Shown: positions 3,095 to 11,591, counted from the stretch's first letter. The stretch: DNA of 64,000 bases from an uncultured bacterium (GCA_964515295.1 CAZETW010000005.1:2826-66825); one strand, 5' to 3'. Made by a program: numbers and translations. Notes: generated by a model from the letters alone, not told the origin.

Positions 3095-3463
3095 TCACCA
3101 TTCTGTACAAACAGGTATTAACCCTGTTCCCTGTACATAGTTACGGGCACTTGAGTATCTCCAGTGAACAGGATCATCAACATATCCTCGACGAATCGGA
3201 TTATAATGAATGTATTCAATCTTCCGAGTAGTTATTTTTCTTGTCCTCATTTGTTGTGGATGACTGCCTTCCTGCCAGACTTGATATTCCCTGTCCCTCT
3301 TAAATGTTTGTTTTCCATTGGAAAGTGCGCTTAAAATAAATTTAGAGCCGTTTCTTTTGTAATAATCCATAATCTGTCTGGCTGTATACGACTTGAAATT
3401 CCCCAATTCTTTGGAAAGATTATCTGATGATACTACCATATGCAAATGATTTTCCATAATCAC
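3095..3463 (-). pseudogene. 5'-truncated Y1 HUH transposase (IS200/IS605 TnpA or REP-associated RAYT-like)
   Basis: HUH motif ENHLHMVV sits almost at the N-terminus. The C-terminal YIHYNPIRRGYVDDPVHWRYSSARNY is typical of the family. Upstream in frame there are only 13 codons before a stop and no canonical N-terminal ~60 aa. Confidence 0.65.
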
Positions 3464-3593: not shown

Positions 3594-3956
3594 TTATTTG
3601 CTATGGTTAAGTTTAAATTTTTTTGCTATGGCATTTAGCCTTTGATCAAATGTCCAAAGTGGAATATCTGTTACCAAAGATGAAGCAAGAATTGCTACGT
3701 CAATATACCCCAAACCTTTACCCATAATTTTATTATTCTCAATAAAGATCATTATCTCGTCATGCTCTATAAGGGAAGATTGCGGTAAGGCTTTAAGGGC
3801 AGCTATAATTTCTTTTCTATTTTTTATGTTACCACACGCCAATTCTCCCAGAATGAATGGATGGCAAAATACCTCTCCATCATTTAGTAATTCAACGAGT
3901 TGATCATTACTATTTCTAAAATGATCAATCCATATAGAAGTATCGACTAAAACCAT
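3594..3956 (-). CDS. vapC: PIN-domain toxin VapC
   Basis: MVLVDTSIWIDHFR..., 120 aa, placed 6 nt after a VapB-like antitoxin gene. Confidence 0.85.
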   Translation of the reverse strand: MVLVDTSIWIDHFRNSNDQLVELLNDGEVFCHPFILGELACGNIKNRKEIIAALKALPQSSLIEHDEIMIFIENNKIMGKGLGYIDVAILASSLVTDIPLWTFDQRLNAIAKKFKLNHSK

Positions 3957-3962
3957 TTTTTA

Positions 3963-4151
3963 CTAATTTCGTCTTCTTGGTATATTGGTTAAATTCTTTT
4001 CTGTTCCACCAAGTTTTGCTAATCTTTTTGCACTTTCACGGGCAATTAATGCTTCAAGACCTAAACGTACGAGCGATGTCTTTTCTTTAATTCCAGTTAA
4101 TTTTGAGGCTTTATCGATTAGCGTGTCTTCAATGTTTAGTGTTGTTCTCAT
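3963..4151 (-). CDS. vapB: VapB-family antitoxin (62 aa)
   Basis: MRTTLNIEDTLIDKASKLTGIKEKTSLVRLGLEALIARESAKRLAKLGG. I placed the start at the internal ATG at 4151, preceded by AAAGGTG. The track start at 4202 has no SD. Confidence 0.8.
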   Translation of the reverse strand: MRTTLNIEDTLIDKASKLTGIKEKTSLVRLGLEALIARESAKRLAKLGGTEKNLTNIPRRRN

Positions 4152-4224
4152 AAACACCTTTATGTATTGTATGTGCATATTAATATGCATAATATAATGC
4201 ATTTTGTCAAGTATTTATTTAGCA

Positions 4225-4319
4225 TATAACGATACAACTGAGCAGCGCGACGCTAAATGAATCATTCTTTCTTTTAGGTAGGGTAGTGTAGGAGCGTCTT
4301 CTCCAGTTGTTCGTTATAC
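4225..4319. repeat. attC-like imperfect palindrome (95 bp)
   Basis: Arms TATAACGATACAACTG (4225-4240) and CAGTTGTTCGTTATA (4304-4318) are complementary except for one extra base in one arm. They are bounded by TATAAC...GTTATA. The site ends 5 nt from the ParE-family stop (4324). Confidence 0.5.
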
Positions 4320-4323
4320 CGGT

Positions 4324-4620
4324 TTATTCATTTACTTCCTCTGAGGGCAATATTTGTTTAAAGTGACGTACTGTTAAAATGAAAATTTCTTCTTGTCGTA
4401 CCTTGTAAATTATTCGATAATTACCATGAATTATTTCTCGTATATATGGTTTATTTGTTTCAGGAACAATGCGCCCACTTTTAGGAAATTTTTTCAAACA
4501 GTCAATAATTTTAAAAATTGATTCTACCCATTTGATTGAAACATCTGGATTATCTTTGGCTATATATTCTGATATTTCTGTCATTCGTTCTACAGATAAA
4601 GGTGACCAGATAATTTTCAT
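4324..4620 (-). CDS. RelE/ParE-family type II toxin
   Basis: 98 aa with ...IREIIHGNYRIIYKVRQEEIFILTVRHFKQ. It overlaps the upstream Phd/YefM gene by 4 nt. Confidence 0.8.
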   Translation of the reverse strand: MKIIWSPLSVERMTEISEYIAKDNPDVSIKWVESIFKIIDCLKKFPKSGRIVPETNKPYIREIIHGNYRIIYKVRQEEIFILTVRHFKQILPSEEVNE

Positions 4621-4898
4621 TTATTAAGCCTCTTGAGAATTTGAGTTTTAGCCTTATCATGACTTATACCTTGCCCTTTTTCTATTTGAGATTCAGCCAG
4701 TTCAATATCACTTAGTAGCTCGATTTTTTCTAATATTTTCTCATATTCAGCAACATCAAGTATTACGGCAGCACTTCTACCATGCTGTGTTAATACAATA
4801 GGTTTTTTGGTACGTTTAATTTCTTCAATTATTGAAGTGATATTTGCGCGAAAATCAGATAATGGTCTAATATTTGTTTCTAAATTTATTCTGTTCAT
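4617..4898 (-). CDS. Phd/YefM-family antitoxin
   Basis: MNRINLETNIRPLSDFRANITSIIEEIKRTKKPIVLTQHGRSAAVILDVAEYEKI. Start moved to the ATG at 4898, preceded by AAAGGAGG. Confidence 0.8.
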   Translation of the reverse strand: MNRINLETNIRPLSDFRANITSIIEEIKRTKKPIVLTQHGRSAAVILDVAEYEKILEKIELLSDIELAESQIEKGQGISHDKAKTQILKRLNK

Positions 4899-4955
4899 AA
4901 TACCTCCTTTTGTACAATTAATATGCCATTTAATGTACAAAATAAGAGATTAATT

Positions 4956-5080
4956 GTCAAACGTGATTTTCACCGGTCGAACCACCAACCGATTTTCCAA
5001 TAAAAGCAAATAATTCCACTAAACTTCAAAATTTGAAAAAATGGTGCGTGGTTCGATCCGCGTGCAAAATTTTGTTATAT
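4956..5080. repeat. attC-like imperfect palindrome (125 bp)
   Basis: Left arm is GTCAAAC-GTGATTTTCACCGGTCGAACCACCAACCG. Right arm is ATGGTGCGTGGTTCGATCCGCGTGCAAAATTTT-GTTATAT. The blocks ATTTT, CAC, CGG and TCGAACCAC pair, with four single-base bulges in one arm. The site ends 11 nt from the stop of the DprA-like gene (5091). Confidence 0.5.
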
Positions 5081-5090
5081 GTGCTCTCTG

Positions 5091-5618
5091 TCAGTACGCC
5101 TCATTTTCCAAGTTATCAGCGAAAATCAACCTGTCTTTTTCTTTTAATTTATTATATAGTTCTACCATCTTACCGCTTGCATCTACATAAGGGATGTATA
5201 TTTTTTTTGTAAGTTTGACCAGAAACTCATTCCGTTTATTACAGAGTTCTCTTGTCGGTCTTGTAATTAAGCCGTGAATTGGCGTTATGATTAAGATTCT
5301 ATTTTCATCTAAACCTGCTCGCCATAATTTCGGGAGACGCATATTATTCAATGACCTTGCTGGACAGATTACTATGGGTTGTATGCCTTTTATTAATACA
5401 TTCAGAATTTCCTGTTCAACCGGTGAATGAAATCCGCTGGCAATAACCAACCCATCTTCACGCCACTGGAAAGCCTGTTCCTGAATCTTTATGATAATAT
5501 TGCCTGGACATTTTGAAGAGCAAAGAAAAGCAAAATCGATTTGGTCAAGCAAACCAATGTTGCCGATATAATCGCAATGATAGTTTCGACTTTCCAAAGT
5601 CAGTTCAATATTATTCAT
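5091..5618 (-). CDS. Short DprA/Smf-like Rossmann-fold (SLOG-type) protein
   Basis: By eye, FAFLCSSKCPG...VIASGFHSPVEQEILNVLIKGIQPIVICPARSL...RILIITP...RPTRELCNKRNEF...YIPYVDASG parallels the DprA core (GSR..., SGxAxGID..AH, tiaVLgcG, SE.p, F..RNR, vvEa..SG). It overlaps the RhuM-like gene by 8 nt. Confidence 0.45.
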   Translation of the reverse strand: MNNIELTLESRNYHCDYIGNIGLLDQIDFAFLCSSKCPGNIIIKIQEQAFQWREDGLVIASGFHSPVEQEILNVLIKGIQPIVICPARSLNNMRLPKLWRAGLDENRILIITPIHGLITRPTRELCNKRNEFLVKLTKKIYIPYVDASGKMVELYNKLKEKDRLIFADNLENEAY

Positions 5619-6708
5619 CTTCTTCGCTTTTGAGTTTTTCCGGATTCTTTACGAATTTTTTGTCTTCCGATTTGATGTGTTTTTTCAAAAGATGTTTTTC
5701 CATTTCCTCCAATTGCTTCAAATCTTCTTCATTAGCAGCAAGTGCCTCTACTTTCTTTCTTTTCGCGTCAAATTCATTATAACGATCTTCGGCTATTTTT
5801 TTTGCAACCTCTGCTTTAACCTGACCTGCATGTGTTAAAAGATCTTGTTCATTGAATTTCAGAAATGCATCCAGCTTATCAGACCATTGGGCCATAGTAA
5901 CTGTTTTACGCTGGCGGGCTTGCCTTTCAGCATAATCCAGATACATGGTTACAATCTCATTAAGGTCTTTGATTTCCTCTGCCTTTAAATAATTCTTGGC
6001 AATACTCACATCTTGCTTGCGGACCACTGATCCTTTCCAGGATGTAAGCCCCATGTTGGGTTTGTTGGAATCGCCTCGTGATTCGATTAGCTCTGCTGCT
6101 GTTTTGCCTGTCACGGCCCAGAGCATTTTGTTCTGCACCTTTTTATAAAACGTTTGGGCCTGAGTAGATGTCTTGTCATAATCTATGGCTGTTGCATAGA
6201 TATCTCGGATTTTCTGATAGAAACGCTTTTCTGAGGCTCTAATATCTCGAATGCGCTCGAGCCATTCATCAAAATAATCCCACTGCTCTGCCTGCTTGAG
6301 GCGAGCGTCATCCATGGCAAAGCCTTTGATGATGTATTCTTTCAAAATCCGGGTCGCCCATATTCTGAATTGGGTGGCGCGTTTGGAATTTACTCGGTAT
6401 CCGACAGCGATGATGGCGTCCAGGTTGAAAAATTCCATCAATCGGGTGACGTCTCTGCCGCCTTCCTGTTGAACTGTTTCCATTTTGGAAACAGTTGCAT
6501 TTCTATCAAGTTCTCGCTCTTCATAAATATTTTTAAGATGTTTGGATATGGCCGGCACATTGACACCAAACAACTCCGCCATCTTCTTCTGCGTGAGCCA
6601 AATGGTCTCATCCTGAATTACTGTGTCTATCCTGATTTTGCCATCATCTGTGGTATAGAGGATTATTTCCGAACTATTCGTTTTCTTAACCATCAGTTCC
6701 TCTTTCAA
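5611..6708 (-). CDS. RhuM-family protein (virulence-protein RhuM/Fic-associated family) with K/E-rich coiled-coil tail
   Basis: ...IWLTQKKMAELFGVNVPAISKHLKNIYEERELD...AIIAVGYRVNSKRATQFRIWATRILKEYIIKGFAMDDARLKQ... is characteristic of RhuM. Confidence 0.75.
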   Translation of the reverse strand: MKEELMVKKTNSSEIILYTTDDGKIRIDTVIQDETIWLTQKKMAELFGVNVPAISKHLKNIYEERELDRNATVSKMETVQQEGGRDVTRLMEFFNLDAIIAVGYRVNSKRATQFRIWATRILKEYIIKGFAMDDARLKQAEQWDYFDEWLERIRDIRASEKRFYQKIRDIYATAIDYDKTSTQAQTFYKKVQNKMLWAVTGKTAAELIESRGDSNKPNMGLTSWKGSVVRKQDVSIAKNYLKAEEIKDLNEIVTMYLDYAERQARQRKTVTMAQWSDKLDAFLKFNEQDLLTHAGQVKAEVAKKIAEDRYNEFDAKRKKVEALAANEEDLKQLEEMEKHLLKKHIKSEDKKFVKNPEKLKSEEDE

Positions 6709-6732
6709 AGCATTTAAGAATACACATTGCTT

Positions 6733-7011
6733 TCATGCAACTTGTGGGGACAGTCCAAGTTTAACCTGCAACTCGGCGCCTGAACCAATCAAGACCATTT
6801 TCCCGACGTCGGCAAAATGGTCTGCAACCTCGTGACCCGCGGTCTCACAAGCTGTTTTCGCTTTTGAAATGACTTTAACAAAGTTATCCCATTTCGAATA
6901 ACCCAATAGATGCTGTAAATCTCTGGCAAACCAGAATTCAATGTCATTAGCTGTTTTATTGGCATGGGTTTCAAAATCTTTGGTTAGTGTTTTGATGATT
7001 TCCTTTTTCAT
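6733..7011 (-). pseudogene. DinD-like (DNA-damage-inducible protein D) N-terminal fragment, truncated after ~85 aa
   Basis: IEFWFARDLQHLLGYSKWDNFVKVISKAKTACETAGHEVADHFADVGKMVLIGSGAE matches the DinD N-terminal half. The expected LSRYACYL... C-terminal half is absent, and the RhuM-like gene starts 25 nt downstream. Confidence 0.6.
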
Positions 7012-7412
7012 TGCATGTCCTTTAAAAGTGTATAGCCCAAGATCGTTTTGTTGACGTCAACAAAATGATCGAGTATTTTATGACCTGATGTTTCACAGGC
7101 TGTTTTTGCCTTATTGATGACTTTGTTAAAATTTCGCCATTCGGTGTAGCCCAGCAAATGCTGAAGATCGCGGGCAAACCAGAATTCAATCCGACCTTTG
7201 ATGGCCCTCGATATTCATCGTGGGCCTCTTTGGGGGAGGGATATCCATCCCGCTGGGTTGGGCAGGGAAGATTCTACTTTTTTCACCTCCCAATATTCGC
7301 TCTTAACAAAAATCGTTGCTATTTCAAATGTACAGAAATAATAAGAAATTTTAGCTGGATCAATTTTGTATTTTTGCATTTTTTTCACTCTTAGTAAGCA
7401 TGGTAATAACAT
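7008..7412 (-). pseudogene. Second DinD-like fragment fused in frame, across an internal TGA, to an unrelated 5' ORF
   Basis: Hand translation gives ...LPQRGPR*ISRAIKGRIEFWFARDLQHLLGYTEWRNFNKVINKAKTACETSGHKILDHFVDVNKTILGYTLLKDMQ*. The in-frame TGA is at 7215-7217. There is no start codon after it. The terminal TGA overlaps the ATG of the 6733..7011 fragment (ATGA). Confidence 0.55.
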
Positions 7413-7517
7413 TCATTAGTCAGTATCTTAGCCCCTAATCCACCCATCGGGATACATATCCCTCTCCATTTTATGCCCAGGATGAATATCCAGGGCAATC
7501 AGCTTTTATGTTATATA

Positions 7518-7814
7518 CTAATCAATAACTCTATCAATCCAGTATTCTGGTACTCTATGTTGGTGTGCTACTGCTAAAATATAAATTTTATTATTATATT
7601 TGGTATAAACTAAATTATAGGGAAACTTTCTTAATACCGCTTTTCTTGTATTTTTTGTAATTTCTGACCATACTTCCGGAAAAATTTTTATCAGTTCAAT
7701 TGTCTTTAAAACTTCATCAAAGAATCCATCTCCAAGCCCTGGAGATTCAAGATTATAATATTTTACAGCGTCATCTAATTCAATTGATGCAGGCTCAATA
7801 AATTCAACATTCAT
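7518..7814 (-). CDS. RelE/ParE-family type II toxin
   Basis: 98 aa with ...AVLRKFPYNLVYTKYNNKIYILAVAHQHRVPEYW. Its ATG abuts the stop of the upstream antitoxin gene. Confidence 0.75.
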   Translation of the reverse strand: MNVEFIEPASIELDDAVKYYNLESPGLGDGFFDEVLKTIELIKIFPEVWSEITKNTRKAVLRKFPYNLVYTKYNNKIYILAVAHQHRVPEYWIDRVID

Positions 7815-8024
7815 TTATTTATACCGTTTTACAATTTCATCTAAAGGTACAGTATCTACTTTTCCTTCTTTTAATGCCTGATATCTTTTTTCTGATTCTT
7901 CAGCCCATATTTTTTCTATTTCTTTATCAGGTTTATCAAGACTTTGTGTTAATTTTTCAATTAACCGAAGTCTTTCGGCCGGCCTTAATTGTAATGCTTC
8001 TTTTAATATTGTTTTTGTATTCAT
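7815..8024 (-). CDS. Addiction-module antitoxin component (TIGR02574-like)
   Basis: 69 aa: ALQLRPAERLRLIEKLTQSLDKPDKEIEKIWAEESEKRYQALKEGKVDTVPLDEI. Confidence 0.7.
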   Translation of the reverse strand: MNTKTILKEALQLRPAERLRLIEKLTQSLDKPDKEIEKIWAEESEKRYQALKEGKVDTVPLDEIVKRYK

Positions 8025-8190
8025 TTATATACTCCCTAAATAGGATGAATTCATTATTATCAATTAACAACTATTTGCAATATACAAAAGCAGTTTCTAT
8101 TATTCAATAAGTAATAATTTAGATTTACCCAGTTTAATTTAAATATCTATTATTTTCAACATTCAGAGTATTGTCTTGTATATATTTAGA

Positions 8191-8374
8191 CATAACGATT
8201 AAATTACCGGTGAAAACAACCGAAATTTAGCGGGCCACCGGTTTAAAATTAAACTGCAGTAAAAATACCGGCCCCATAACAAATTTGTCAATCAAAGGGC
8301 AATGCTATCGTTGGCCGAATGAAAATGTGAAAATGAAAGGTGGCGTTTTCATCCGGTGCATTTTTGTGTTAGCG
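8191..8374. repeat. Long attC-like imperfect palindrome (about 184 bp) directly after the DGR RT stop
   Basis: Left is CATAAC-GATTAAATTACCGGTGAAAACAACCG. Right is GGTGGCGTTTTCATCCGGTGCATTTTTGT-GTTAGCG. The blocks AAAT, ACCGG and TGAAAAC pair with bulges. An inner GGGCCACCGGT...ACCGGCCCC hairpin is present. The arms resemble those of the 4956-5080 site (TTTCACCGGT / CCGNGTGCA...TTTTGT). Confidence 0.4.
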
Positions 8375-8381
8375 TAACATT

Positions 8382-9584
8382 TCATAAATATTTGATTTTA
8401 CATGCAAATTTGCCCGCCCCGTTATGCAAATAAACATAATTCCACCACCATGCAGACAGGTATTTTACAATCATTTCTTTTCTGGCTCTATAAGATTTAT
8501 AATGCTTCATAATACCCAGGTATGAATTCATGCTGCTGAGGAACTTCTCCTGTTCCACCCTTGTCGGCTTATGGTCACGAGCTATTTGATTTTGTTTCTC
8601 AATTGATTCATAAAAGTTACCCTTTGTACGGTTGGCAATATAAACCCGGTGCGGTTTGATTACAGCACCAGGATATTTTACACCTTTTGTAAAATGCTGA
8701 AGGTATATTTTATTGGGATGCAGATCCAGCCTCAAGTATATTTTGAGGTATGATTTAATTACCGGAATCAAGGATTTCAAATATTCTTTGTCTTTATGAA
8801 TCAGAATGAAATCATCCACATACCGGCCATAATATCTGATTTTCAAATCTCTTTTCATAAAATGATCGAATTCATTCAGGTAAACATTTCCGAATAATTG
8901 TGAAGTTAAATTTCCGATGGGCAGGCCGCAATCAGGACCGGAATGAAAAAGGCTTTTATCGTTTGGTAAACCCTGCCAGTCTTTTCTGCAGCCCTTGGTG
9001 ATGCAATCTTGGGTTGGATCGTTGAAAATGATTTTTTCGAGCAAATAAAGAACCAGATGTAAATCAAAATCCGCTCTGCCGGGTGCCGCAGATAAGGCTG
9101 ATTTGATTTTTTCAAAAAGCAGCCGTCGGTTCATGGCCATAAAATAGCCGCGGATGTCCAGTTTTAAGATATGGCAATCTTCAGTATAATTTAATGAGCA
9201 TGACCGGATAAAATGATCAATCCGTTTGATTCCGTAATGCGTGCCTTTACCCTTGCGGCAGCTGTAGCTGTCATTAATAAACATGCCCTCAAAAACAGGT
9301 GCAAGATAATTATAGAGCAAATGATGCACCACCCTGTCACGGAAGTTCGCGGCGAAGATTTCGCGCTTAACGGGTTTATTCACAATAAAAAAGATGCTTT
9401 TTCTCGGTTCGTAGGTGCGGTTCATGATCTCTTCATGCAATTCAAAAAGATTCGTTTCAAAATGTTTTTCAAAAGCCAGCGCATTGATGGTGTTCCTTTT
9501 ATTCCAGCGGGCGTCAAAATACGCCTGAAACAGATCTAACAACAGTTTCTCTTCATTTTGTTCGTCAAACAATGTTGTCTGCAT
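8382..9584 (-). CDS. Diversity-generating retroelement reverse transcriptase
   Basis: 400 aa with RT motifs, including the DGR-type GLPIGNLTSQLFGNVYLNEFDHF (SQ in place of QG) and the catalytic YGRYVDDFILI. It lies adjacent to a TR/VR pair and an avd gene. Confidence 0.9.
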   Translation of the reverse strand: MQTTLFDEQNEEKLLLDLFQAYFDARWNKRNTINALAFEKHFETNLFELHEEIMNRTYEPRKSIFFIVNKPVKREIFAANFRDRVVHHLLYNYLAPVFEGMFINDSYSCRKGKGTHYGIKRIDHFIRSCSLNYTEDCHILKLDIRGYFMAMNRRLLFEKIKSALSAAPGRADFDLHLVLYLLEKIIFNDPTQDCITKGCRKDWQGLPNDKSLFHSGPDCGLPIGNLTSQLFGNVYLNEFDHFMKRDLKIRYYGRYVDDFILIHKDKEYLKSLIPVIKSYLKIYLRLDLHPNKIYLQHFTKGVKYPGAVIKPHRVYIANRTKGNFYESIEKQNQIARDHKPTRVEQEKFLSSMNSYLGIMKHYKSYRARKEMIVKYLSAWWWNYVYLHNGAGKFACKIKYL

Positions 9585-9591
9585 TTTATCT

Positions 9592-9620
9592 GCATGGCGG
9601 CCCGTCCAAGGCCGCCATGC
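9592..9620 (-). other. GC-rich hairpin between TR and the RT start (perfect 11-bp stem, 7-nt loop)
   Basis: GCATGGCGGCC-cgtccaa-GGCCGCCATGC. It lies 16 nt after the TR 3' end and 7 nt before the RT ATG on the minus strand. No SD is visible for the RT. Confidence 0.6.
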
Positions 9621-9636
9621 CCTTTTGACTGTTTTA

Positions 9637-9831
9637 AATCCCGAATAAGCCGGATACTAAAACCGTTTTGCTTATTGTTGTTGTTACGGTTCACGTCTGA
9701 ATTATTGTAATTCAGGTTCCGGTTCCACGCGTTATTGGTATTGTTCTCGGTAGACGACCCAAAATTGGCGTTGTTGCCGAGATTGTTGAAGTTACCATTG
9801 TTGTTGCGGTAACCACCGGGAAGCGCGGAAA
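9637..9831 (-). repeat. DGR template repeat (TR), 195 bp
   Basis: Aligns without gaps to 10471-10665 (offset 834). By hand count there are 39 mismatches. Of these, 37 fall at plus-strand T, which is adenine on the transcribed minus strand of the TR. The TR reading frame is Asn-rich (about two dozen AAY codons). Confidence 0.9.
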
Positions 9832-9985
9832 TAAAAGCAGCCGCTGAATTAATCATGCCTTCATTCTCAGAAAACATGAACTGATACCTCGCAAAAAAAC
9901 ACAAGGGGGCTGCCGGATTTAAATACGCTCGCTTGCCTGCGCCGTGGCGGCAGGCAACTCTGGCTGAACAGTCTAATACAGTTTT

Positions 9986-10016
9986 AAAGTTAAAAGTTGT
10001 AAAGTTCATAAAGTTT
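9986..10016. repeat. Left arm of the inverted repeat bracketing avd (overlaps the avd stop codon)
   Basis: The reverse complement AAACTTTATGAACTTTACAACTTTTAACTTT matches 10370-10401 (AAACTTTATGAACTTTATAAACTTTTAACTTT) with one mismatch and one 1-nt indel. Confidence 0.8.
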
Positions 10017-10353
10017 TAACAAGTCCGGATATGATTTTTGAGATTTCTTCAGCCTTTGCAGATAATTCATCTGCTTGGTTTTGTTTTAATATACTCATCG
10101 CACCTGCCAATAAAAGCATTGACCTGACCTCACCGCATGAGCCTTTGGCAACAAACAGAAAATGCTTGAATTCATTGTTTGATCTTCTTTCAAACCCCTC
10201 TGCAATATTATTCATTATTGAAACACAAGCGCGCTGAATTTGGTCTTTAAAACCATAATCTTTGCTGTTCTCAAACAGCTTGTAAACTTGAATTGTCAGC
10301 AGCTTCGCCTTCTGCCACGCAATAATTTCTTCAAACCTGTTAATCTTCATCAA
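10006..10353 (-). CDS. avd: DGR accessory variability determinant (Avd), four-helix-bundle protein of the 23S rRNA-intervening-sequence-protein family
   Basis: 115 aa: ...AWQKAKLLTIQVYKLFENSKDYGFKDQIQRACVSIMNNIAEGFERRSNNEFKHFLFVAKGSCGEVRSML. This is typical of TIGR02436/PF05635-type proteins. It is located between VR and TR. Confidence 0.8.
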   Translation of the reverse strand: MMKINRFEEIIAWQKAKLLTIQVYKLFENSKDYGFKDQIQRACVSIMNNIAEGFERRSNNEFKHFLFVAKGSCGEVRSMLLLAGAMSILKQNQADELSAKAEEISKIISGLVKTL

Positions 10354-10369
10354 TAACTTTCAACTTTAT

Positions 10370-10401
10370 AAACTTTATGAACTTTATAAACTTTTAACTT
10401 T
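10370..10401. repeat. Right arm of the inverted repeat bracketing avd (16 nt upstream of the avd start)
   Basis: See 9986-10016. The arm is embedded in a run of AACTTT-type hexamer units (10357-10406). Confidence 0.8.
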
Positions 10402-10420
10402 CAACTCAAAAATATTTTCG

Positions 10421-10437
10421 ATTCCGCTTCGCGGAAT
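10421..10437 (-). other. Small hairpin ATTCCGC-ttc-GCGGAAT 33 nt downstream of the VR end; candidate DGR target-site hairpin/cruciform
   Basis: 7-bp perfect stem with a 3-nt loop (GAA on the transcribed strand), just 3' of the target gene stop. Confidence 0.5.
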
Positions 10438-10468
10438 AAATAGTATAATAGTCGAATAGATAAATAGT

Positions 10469-11158
10469 CTAATCCCGAATAAGCCGGATACTATAACCGC
10501 CTTGCTTACCGCCGTCGCCACGGTACACGTCTGAAACACTGTAACCCAGGACCCGGCTCCACGCGCGATAGGTACCGTACTCGGTAGACGACCAAAAATA
10601 GGCGTAGTAGCCGAGAAGGCGGAAGCCACCATTGCCGTGGCGGGAACCACCGGGAAGCGCGGAAAAGCCGCTTTCATTCGTCGCACCTTCATTCGGACTC
10701 CCCCAATGTGTTGTGCCGGTTGTCTTCATCTTGCCGCCAGCAACTTCTTCGCCTCCAAGATAGTTTACCAATGTTGCCCACTCTGCGTCTGTAGGCACAT
10801 GCCAGCCTGAGGGAGCAATATTATGAACATCTGTGACAGCAAACCAGTTATATAAATAACCGTATATATCTGCGGTACTTTCACTATTATCAAAAGCACA
10901 ATAAGCGCCTGTTGATAGATTTTCCCATTGTGAATTGTCTGTAACATGATTTATCGGGGTACCGTCACAGTAATGGGTCACCTTCAAATTCTCGGCCATC
11001 CATACCTGATTACCTATTTTTACGGTTTGATATACATTACCGTCAATATCCTTAACCGTATCCGAAACCGTATTCTCGGTTGGACTCTTTTTGTTGCATC
11101 CCGTTATGAGCATCATAAATAACACTACAACCGTTAATAATGACATTGCTTTTTTCAT
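10469..11158 (-). CDS. DGR target: surface lipoprotein with a Fibrobacter-succinogenes-major-paralogous-type domain and a C-terminal variable region
   Basis: Signal peptide plus lipobox (LITGC). DIDGNVYQTVKIGNQVWMAENLKVTHY...YGYLYNWFAV...APSGWHVPTDAEWATL is typical of TIGR02145. The last ~65 codons are the VR. Confidence 0.85.
   Translation of the reverse strand: MKKAMSLLTVVVLFMMLITGCNKKSPTENTVSDTVKDIDGNVYQTVKIGNQVWMAENLKVTHYCDGTPINHVTDNSQWENLSTGAYCAFDNSESTADIYGYLYNWFAVTDVHNIAPSGWHVPTDAEWATLVNYLGGEEVAGGKMKTTGTTHWGSPNEGATNESGFSALPGGSRHGNGGFRLLGYYAYFWSSTEYGTYRAWSRVLGYSVSDVYRGDGGKQGGYSIRLIRD
10471..10665 (-). repeat. DGR variable repeat (VR), 195 bp, at the 3' end of the target gene
   Basis: See the TR entry. 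The final ~22 nt before the stop are identical to the TR. Confidence 0.9.
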
Positions 11159-11249
11159 CGCTTTTCTCCTTTGTAATTGTTGATTGCTTATGCTGATATT
11201 GTAACTGCATTCTAAGACACTAACATAATATTAACTACCAAAAACCAGC

Positions 11250-11384
11250 CTAAAAAAATATTTTAAGAATGTTCCTCTTAAAGTCATTACGATAACGAAC
11301 GCAAATAAGATCATCTCCATATTTTTTCATGATCTTTTTTGTACCGGGTTGACCAGGTTTTAATTTTTTTATTGTTCTCATCAT
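11250..11384 (-). CDS. 44-aa basic ORF (below the track threshold), possibly a truncated small conserved protein
   Basis: [44 protein letters not shown]. The KPGQ.GTKK...YGD.L.CVRYR pattern looks like a small family I recall from other bacteria. This is from memory and not verified. Confidence 0.3.
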
Positions 11385-11397
11385 ATATTGTCTGCAA

Positions 11398-11508
11398 GGC
11401 TTTTACTCCCAATCCTCCTCGCGGTAGTACATGTGTATAAAACATAGTTGGTGCTTTATTTTTATGCCCTGATAACTCCTGTCGAGTATTTATATTATAA
11501 CTGCATAT
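11398..11508 (-). pseudogene. C-terminal remnant (~35 aa) of an integron-type tyrosine recombinase (IntI-like)
   Basis: Hand translation gives ...[36 protein letters not shown]... Compare the IntI C-terminus ...[32 protein letters not shown]. The catalytic-Tyr box YTHV followed by L..GG.GV is IntI-like rather than XerC/D-like. A stop lies immediately upstream, and the rest of the gene is absent. Confidence 0.55.
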
Positions 11509-11591
11509 TTAATATTTAAAAAGTAATTATATTCATAAGTAATAAATTTTTATAAAAATGTCAAGTTTTTTATGCCGGGTTAAAAAAAACA

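Follow-up and report, generated by a model that had tools for sequence, protein, structure and literature searches.

Integrons and diversity-generating retroelements (DGRs), the latter rewriting the binding tip of a single protein, are two of the main means by which bacteria produce diversity on demand, and to our knowledge they have so far been studied separately. Can one be the cargo of the other? The question is raised by a 64,000-nucleotide stretch of DNA from an uncultured bacterium (GCA_964515295.1, CAZETW010000005.1:2826-66825), hereafter the window, with positions counted from its first letter. An earlier note on this DNA had proposed that a four-part DGR, comprising a target gene, avd, a template repeat (TR) and a reverse transcriptase (RT) gene, is co-oriented with an array of gene cassettes and itself occupies a cassette position. 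Here, we describe the evidence that this DGR is very probably a single integron gene cassette (8196-11223, minus strand), the first in a chromosomal integron that has decayed and belongs to the 'inverted' type, where integrase, conserved small gene, attI junction and cassettes would share one orientation.

All genes between about 1.9 and 11.5 kb lie on the minus strand, including those of the DGR, whose parts were recognized from profile matches, sequence motifs and repeat comparison:

10469 to 11158, minus strand: DGR target gene, encoding a 229-aa lipoprotein (Fib_succ_major, PF09603, E 7e-52) with an LITGC lipobox in the translation
10471 to 10665, minus strand: variable repeat (VR), the C-terminal end of the target and its last 195 nt, 80% identical to the TR
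10006 to 10353, minus strand: avd (accessory variability determinant; PF05635, E 4e-33; bAvd, E 1e-3)
9830 to 9964, minus strand: structured RNA between avd and TR (Rfam RF03028, RT-7 motif, 65 bits, E 1e-13, below the gathering score)
9637 to 9831, minus strand: adenine-rich TR of 195 nt, found by repeat comparison with the VR
8382 to 9584, minus strand: DGR reverse transcriptase, 400 aa (PF00078, E 2e-12), with IGNLTSQ and YVDD motifs in the translation

Over their 195 nt, the TR and VR differ at 39 positions, 37 of them TR adenines. With a DGR-type RT, adenine-specific differences between TR and VR, a VR at the 3' end of the target and an Avd protein all present, the DGR is unambiguous, and its parts are co-oriented with the cassettes as the earlier note described. 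The RT-7 motif, which Rfam describes merely as 'near RT genes', also lies between avd and TR in two related loci (L006, 3240-3399; L009, 3734-3879), and because of this position it is probably the spacer or priming RNA of this DGR clade. Exact-protein look-ups of the RT, Avd and the neighbouring ParE returned the same genome only. Two further features of the region were observed: inverted repeats of AAAGTT(A/C)TAAAGTT type bracket avd (9980-10016 and 10370-10406), a repeat type that also flanks an avd remnant in a Neomarinimicrobiota metagenome-assembled genome (MAG), L050 (at 149-224); and a GC-rich 11-bp stem (GCATGGCGGCC ... GGCCGCCATGC) lies at 9592-9620, between the TR and the RT start.

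The case for a cassette is made at the two ends of the unit, which lie at short cores of the kind recombined in integrons:

8190 to 8374, minus strand: attC-type site of the DGR cassette, a 185-nt imperfect hairpin with R'' core CGCTAAC (8374-8368) and R' core GTTATGT (8196-8190)
11218 to 11224, minus strand: R'-type core GTTAGTG, the left recombination junction, attI-like or an attC remnant
8196 to 11223, minus strand: DGR cassette unit of 3,028 bp, beginning with the TT of GTTAGTG (upstream core) and closing with the G of GTTATGT (downstream core)

At the right end, the hairpin begins 7 nt past the RT stop codon (8384-8382) and is the longest of the cassette-end hairpins evaluated in the window, in line with the earlier suggestion that the largest attC-like palindrome follows the RT. 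Bona fide attC sites are expected to react through their bottom strand and to carry extrahelical bases on the R''-L'' arm. Here, the bottom strand is predicted to fold into a single end-to-end hairpin (-27.9 kcal/mol, z -2.2, with 4 of 200 shuffled sequences folding equally well), in which the R''-side arm, with its GTTAGCG end, is 2 nt longer, having a single bulged T and GC opposite T; the gene (top) strand is predicted to form no end-to-end hairpin (z -0.8). Inverted R'' (RYYYAAC) and R' (GTTRRRY) cores and a predicted bottom-strand hairpin together give 8374-8190 the form of an attC-type 3' end. Just past the RT stop, RT relatives have kept the R'' core together with its 5' flank, and the window's hairpins are closest to a site that follows a degraded DGR in L050. 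Rfam gave no match at 8190-8374.

The arms of this hairpin are also found in other settings. In the source metagenome (X1/X2), a 3,489-nt contig from a less abundant organism carries them again (8192-8220 identical, 8330-8371 with six changes) around a different 110-nt loop and between different flanks. In runs X3 and X4, of which X3 is a sediment metagenome of another, independent study, the 5' arm reaches multi-copy depth and has several different surroundings. One X3 contig joins 8377, on the hairpin side of the RT stop, to 9608, just ahead of the RT start, as would be expected of a relative lacking the RT gene, although one side of this join is just 31 nt long and it may be spurious.

At the left end, the earlier note had seen no convincing recombination site between 11159 and 11250. 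The GTTAGTG core sits in this interval (11224-11218), and the start codon of the target follows 59 nt further downstream. X3 contains a relative at about 90-95% identity, represented by fragments of the RT, of the spacer RNA and of the target leader. Two of its contigs, 230 and 80 nt long and about 92% identical to the window across this leader, part from it exactly at 11224 and run on into unrelated sequence, reading ...GGGGTTTATGG|GTTAGTG on the gene strand where the window reads ...TAATATTAT|GTTAGTG. Because of this exact divergence, we give the cassette a sharp left boundary, as expected of an integron cassette; its 5' end falls at the G|TT of the preceding core, with short contigs in support. 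The right end of the unit was placed from the attC-type hairpin and by comparison with the G|TT junctions that related cassettes show (below). The upstream site is a bare core beside the integrase platform, attI-like or eroded, and not an attC hairpin. A candidate hairpin at 11377-11218, which would enclose the small gene orfX (below), was rejected, since folding gave it no support.

Immediately upstream of the left core lies what remains of an integron platform, the DGR being situated just downstream of an integrase remnant and one small open reading frame (ORF), as had been noted:

11385 to 11478, minus strand: C-terminal stump of an integron integrase, some 32 codons interrupted by a 1-nt frameshift; the approximately 290 codons of the N-terminal part are absent
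11253 to 11381, minus strand: truncated small gene orfX, whose start overlaps the integrase stop (homologues P0001, P0002)

Translated across its frameshift, the stump matches in NCBIfam only two integron-integrase models, TIGR02249 (positions 284-313 of the 315 in the profile, E 2e-4) and PRK15417. So short a C-terminus is weak evidence alone, and a recombinase linked to IS91 in one related locus (L124) matches the same part of TIGR02249; for this reason orfX was used as a second marker of the platform. The orfX family has 1,602 representatives, typically of 100-130 aa, and in all five contigs examined (L134, L137, L138, L139 and L140) a relative lies 17-235 nt downstream of an integrase gene on the same strand. 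The integrase of L137 is a full-length IntI (465 bits on TIGR02249, cut-off 265), those of L138, L139 and L140 are IntI genes cut by contig ends (373, 211 and 402 bits), and in L134 the orfX relative follows an IntI-like C-terminus. The order on one strand of L137 is integrase, orfX relative, GTTAGGT, ORF and attC (CCTAAC ... CAAC GTTAGAC). By this sequence comparison, the platform in the window is homologous to that of bona fide integrons, and it is because the stump and orfX are homologous to such IntI-orfX platforms that we read the window as holding the decayed head of an inverted-type integron with the DGR as its first cassette; the family of orfX may be an undescribed component of platforms of this type. 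Its members share an N-terminal KLKPGQxGTKKL..YGDxLxCVRYRYD motif and have no Pfam or NCBIfam model.

The same platform occurs in contigs from two other samples, L135 and L136, which also carry the stump and are about 88% identical to the window over stump, orfX and a TTGACA-containing leader; its neighbour is a TetR gene in these contigs versus a ligase operon in the window. The common block may hold the promoter of the array. It begins at AAAAACTTGACAT (11559-11564, minus strand) and runs through the stump and orfX at about 88% identity. The window's orfX has lost about 105 nt relative to L135, and in the region of this deletion no more than some 30 nt are left between orfX and the core, a gap in which L134 has five TCTAATAATAGAAAC-like repeats and the window none.

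That such units move is indicated by the relatives of the DGR. RTs of 60-72% identity were found at 51 genome loci (Bacteroidota, Calditrichota, Neomarinimicrobiota and others) and at 80 metagenome loci; neither the genome nor the metagenome contig collections yielded one above 72%. In a large subclade, a hairpin of about 130 nt with GCTAAC ... GTTAGN cores begins 12-13 nt after the RT stop. Alignment of 12 such sites revealed compensatory changes in 14 of 20 stem pairs, together with an unusual 2-nt/5-nt spacer asymmetry, and a covariance model built from them (R1) was searched in 133 related loci. This model and comparison of junctions superseded simple core-plus-stem scans, which separated array from non-array DNA poorly and missed the window's hairpin on the gene strand. 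R1 identified 68 sites (21 + 47) on the RT strand; on the minus strand there were only two rows, both weak and one a palindromic echo of a plus-strand match. Among the 106 loci that could be evaluated, having the RT stop and enough downstream sequence, a match starts no more than 120 nt after the RT stop in 29 (in 28 of them within 65 nt) and at 230-300 nt in four more. Units that measure 3.1-5.3 kb and are flanked on either side were seen in at least six distinct loci (L013, identical to L081; L070; L078, identical to L079; L096; L006; L009; L065; L066; L067), and several of these have the target-avd-TR-RT layout with a Fib_succ_major target. DGRs homologous to that of the window, whose absence from integron settings would have spoken against the proposal, do therefore occur in cassette arrays.

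Where copies can be compared, they change partners at the cores. One DGR with its post-RT hairpin is present in nine contigs, each with a different downstream sequence: the match extends through the G of the R' core and, in eight of the nine, the next TT (L015 has GTAAGCC), beyond which every copy differs (AGGC, AGCG, ACCG, GTTT, ATGG, ACCA and so on). Upstream, four different hairpins (L013, L015, L096, L078) are joined at G|TTAGCATTCAGTGG... to one cassette start, and the pairs L067/L006 and L065/L066 show the same pattern of upstream joins. The position of these junctions is the canonical attC crossover, G|TT, and because the junctions fall there the polarity is fixed, the gene strand being the top strand. 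The predicted folds agree, the bottom-strand arms folding 0.4 to 5 kcal/mol better in 11 of 12 sites scored on both strands. The reverse polarity had been raised by relatives of 83-87% identity that lose similarity right after GCTAAC and by extra bases of the R1 family on the gene-strand 3' arm; it was ruled out, since copies that are nearly identical have the entire hairpin in common and part company after the GTT of its 3' end, and their left ends start at G|TT. Breakpoints at cores between different contexts are thus seen upstream of the window's unit (in X3) and, in its relatives, at nine downstream and four upstream joins, which speaks for mobility of the unit.

Single DGR cassettes also occupy sites outside arrays, one beside a SusC gene (L020) and another downstream of a Bacteroidetes-type integrase (L084). 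In L096, a gene for a Xer-like recombinase (3736-4575) breaks off after ...KTT, precisely where the cassette junction G|TTGTTT falls, and this looks like insertion of the DGR cassette at a secondary site within the recombinase gene. In L124 (3788-5810), a Xer-like recombinase and an IS91 transposase follow the post-RT hairpin. These three, the IS91-linked recombinase, the truncated Xer-like one and the Bacteroidetes-type integrase, are the recombinases found in the 133 loci, in which motif and tblastn searches detected no IntI-type tyrosine recombinase. As a separate observation, L015 (Geofilum rhodophaeum), otherwise a 98% identical copy of the L013 DGR cassette, carries an IS21-type element (4219-6977; IstA 522 aa, IstB 241 aa) in the 3' end of its RT gene, with a 10-nt target duplication.

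How far could the unit in the window itself move? The proposal that it is mobilisable holds for the related DGR cassettes, which have changed contexts; this copy itself, however, probably cannot move except with the help of another integrase in trans, the local one being a frameshifted stump. For the same reason, only some 32 frameshifted codons having survived, the array is best described as a degenerate integron, akin to a cluster of attC sites lacking integron-integrases (CALIN). Beyond the DGR, the array continues with the following features:

7518 to 8024, minus strand: next cassette, antitoxin (PF09720) and ParE toxin, by profile match
about 4955 to 5076, minus strand: attC-type hairpin of about 122 nt, after a RhuM/DprA-like gene pair
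4224 to 4319, minus strand: attC-type hairpin of 96 nt (GTATAAC ... GTTATAT), 4 nt after a ParE/RelE-like gene

Further hairpin candidates at 7516-7405 and 3592-3476 are weak. The array also contains a remnant of a REP-associated tyrosine transposase (RAYT; REP, repetitive extragenic palindrome) at 3095-3463 and a repeat of about 69 nt (7433-7501, with an inverted copy at 7199-7267) that reaches 4-6 times genome depth in the source metagenome, has many different flanks and breaks contigs.

The earlier note had also taken the GC richness of the target and repeat region as consistent with foreign origin and had called for a k-mer comparison of the unit with its flanks. The unit does deviate, with a GC content of 40.8% against 35.6% in the rest of the window and a tetranucleotide distance above that of all 50 control windows (z 2.9), which makes it the most deviant 3-kb stretch. 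The VR alone, however, has 58.5% GC, and because DGR adenine mutagenesis raises the GC content of the VR, much of the visible richness is an effect of the VR. Composition therefore supports foreign origin only weakly, and GC richness was dropped as proof of it.

Several observations weigh against the reading of the DGR as a cassette. At the left end, no hairpin ends at GTTAGTG and neither a hairpin nor integrase-binding repeats are visible upstream of it, and the evidence for the junction comes from two short Logan contigs (the 230 and 80 nt given above) of a relative of about 92% identity. The functional intI that an integron array would have beside it is reduced here to frameshifted C-terminal codons, and no integron integrase was found within the 8-10 kb fetched around R1-type arrays either. 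R1, the family-specific model of Bacteroidales-type sites, has no match to the window's hairpins, which are of a different sequence type; the closest RT relatives (70-72%, such as L001, L054 and L057) have no detectable hairpin, and one was found in just about 27% of evaluable loci. Finally, the source-sample contigs contain no excision or circle joint at 8196/11223. The metagenome runs were analysed as assembled contigs, in which rare variants, such as those expected of a VR under ongoing mutagenesis, are lost.

The absence of an upstream hairpin, the dead integrase, the hairpin-less closest relatives and the silence of R1 in the window would all suit the view that the DGR is ordinary island cargo that happens to lie beside an integron remnant and never moved as a cassette, the palindrome belonging to the toxin-antitoxin (TA) cassette or acting as a terminator. 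We consider this unlikely. In cassette geometry an attC goes with the gene that precedes it, in this case the RT, and the conservation of the R'' core and its 5' flank past the RT stop extends across the RT clade; moreover, the X3 relative breaks at the predicted left core, and related DGRs are flanked on both sides and have G|TT junctions in many contexts. Less probable still, and in our estimate very unlikely, is that the hairpins are not attC sites at all but the ends of another hairpin-dependent unit (REP/RAYT or IS200/IS605-like) or of a cassette system served by a Xer-like recombinase. The RAYT remnant and the multi-copy repeat in the array invite this explanation, as do the Xer-like recombinases that adjoin hairpins in L096 and L124, the want of IntI near R1-type arrays and the spacer asymmetry of the R1 family. 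Against these stand cores that match attC R'' and R' (..YTAAC / GTTRRRY) with junctions at G|TT, the better folding of the bottom strand in 11 of the 12 scored sites and in the window's own hairpin, and an array that starts at a platform homologous to bona fide integrons; the recombinase of L096 is truncated by the insertion, and that of L124 belongs to an IS91 element. That the DGR arrived on a larger element (prophage, integrative and conjugative element (ICE) or transposon) with chance matches as flanking cores is likewise very improbable: DGRs usually reside on phages and ICEs (PMC11601372) and the unit is atypical in composition, but gene calls and profile matches place no phage, conjugation or transposase genes within 8196-11223, and in relatives the conservation of the unit stops exactly at the cores.

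If the DGR is an integron cassette, its history can be sketched. An integron integrase would once have recombined two attC sites at G|TT, each in the form of its folded bottom strand, and so released the unit as a circle, which it would then have inserted at the attI junction beside the integrase platform. There, the unit could be read from the promoter region of the platform or from promoters of its own. Within the cassette, the TR-containing RNA would be reverse-transcribed with errors at adenines, and the mutated cDNA would replace the VR at the C-terminus of the surface lipoprotein. Both catalysis of these moves by IntI and control of expression by position in the array are steps that we infer.

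Both component systems are known; what is new is their combination, a DGR as cassette cargo, which is seen in many lineages and of which we found no report in the literature searched. The closest parallel is with the cassettes of sedentary chromosomal integrons and CALINs, which are recombined by IntI. As in these, a promoter-poor gene unit is followed by an imperfect hairpin with RYYYAAC/GTTRRRY-type cores, has boundaries at G|TT, lies behind different upstream sites and before different downstream sequences, and has neighbouring TA-pair cassettes, typical of chromosomal arrays. It differs from them in its cargo, a four-part 3-kb retroelement of three genes and a TR rather than one small ORF, in its long attC (185 nt) and in having a local integrase that is only a stump. 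Integrons with inverted integrases, of the Treponema denticola type and others, are documented (PMC4889954, PMC3607928) and likewise have the integrase on the cassette strand and an attachment junction downstream of the integrase 3' end; the differences are the conserved small gene (about 110-130 aa when intact) between integrase and first cassette, of which no description was found, and the deletion of the integrase here except for 32 codons. The DGRs of phages (BPP-1) and of Bacteroides conjugative elements (PMC11601372) share with this one the RT, Avd, the adenine-specific TR/VR relationship and a surface protein whose variable C-terminus resembles C-type lectins, but here an integron cassette carries the DGR in place of a phage or ICE. 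Group IIC-attC (and IIB) introns also bring RT genes into integron arrays beside attC (PMC7923331), yet these are self-splicing parasites that insert into attC, whereas here the whole DGR is cargo with an attC of its own.

For the wider clade we hold, with less assurance than for the window but still on balance in favour, that these DGRs spread between phyla (Bacteroidota, Calditrichota and Marinimicrobia-like) as integron cassettes, that integrase shuffling sets whether and how strongly hypermutation is expressed, that such attC arrays are common in Bacteroidales, and that between intI and attI the inverted platform has a conserved small gene so far undescribed. The range of cassette cargo would be widened to units of 3-5 kb with several genes and a non-coding template, and the finding points to cassette arrays in Bacteroidales, where standard surveys report near absence, integrons being rare in Bacteroidetes according to IntegronFinder 2.0 (PMC9024848). 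Packaged as a cassette, a DGR could be captured, reordered, silenced at the end of an array, brought next to a promoter and passed between species. This would help explain how RTs of 60-72% identity come to be found in MAGs labelled as several different phyla, and it would offer a concrete route for the horizontal spread of 'evolvability' beyond phages and ICEs.

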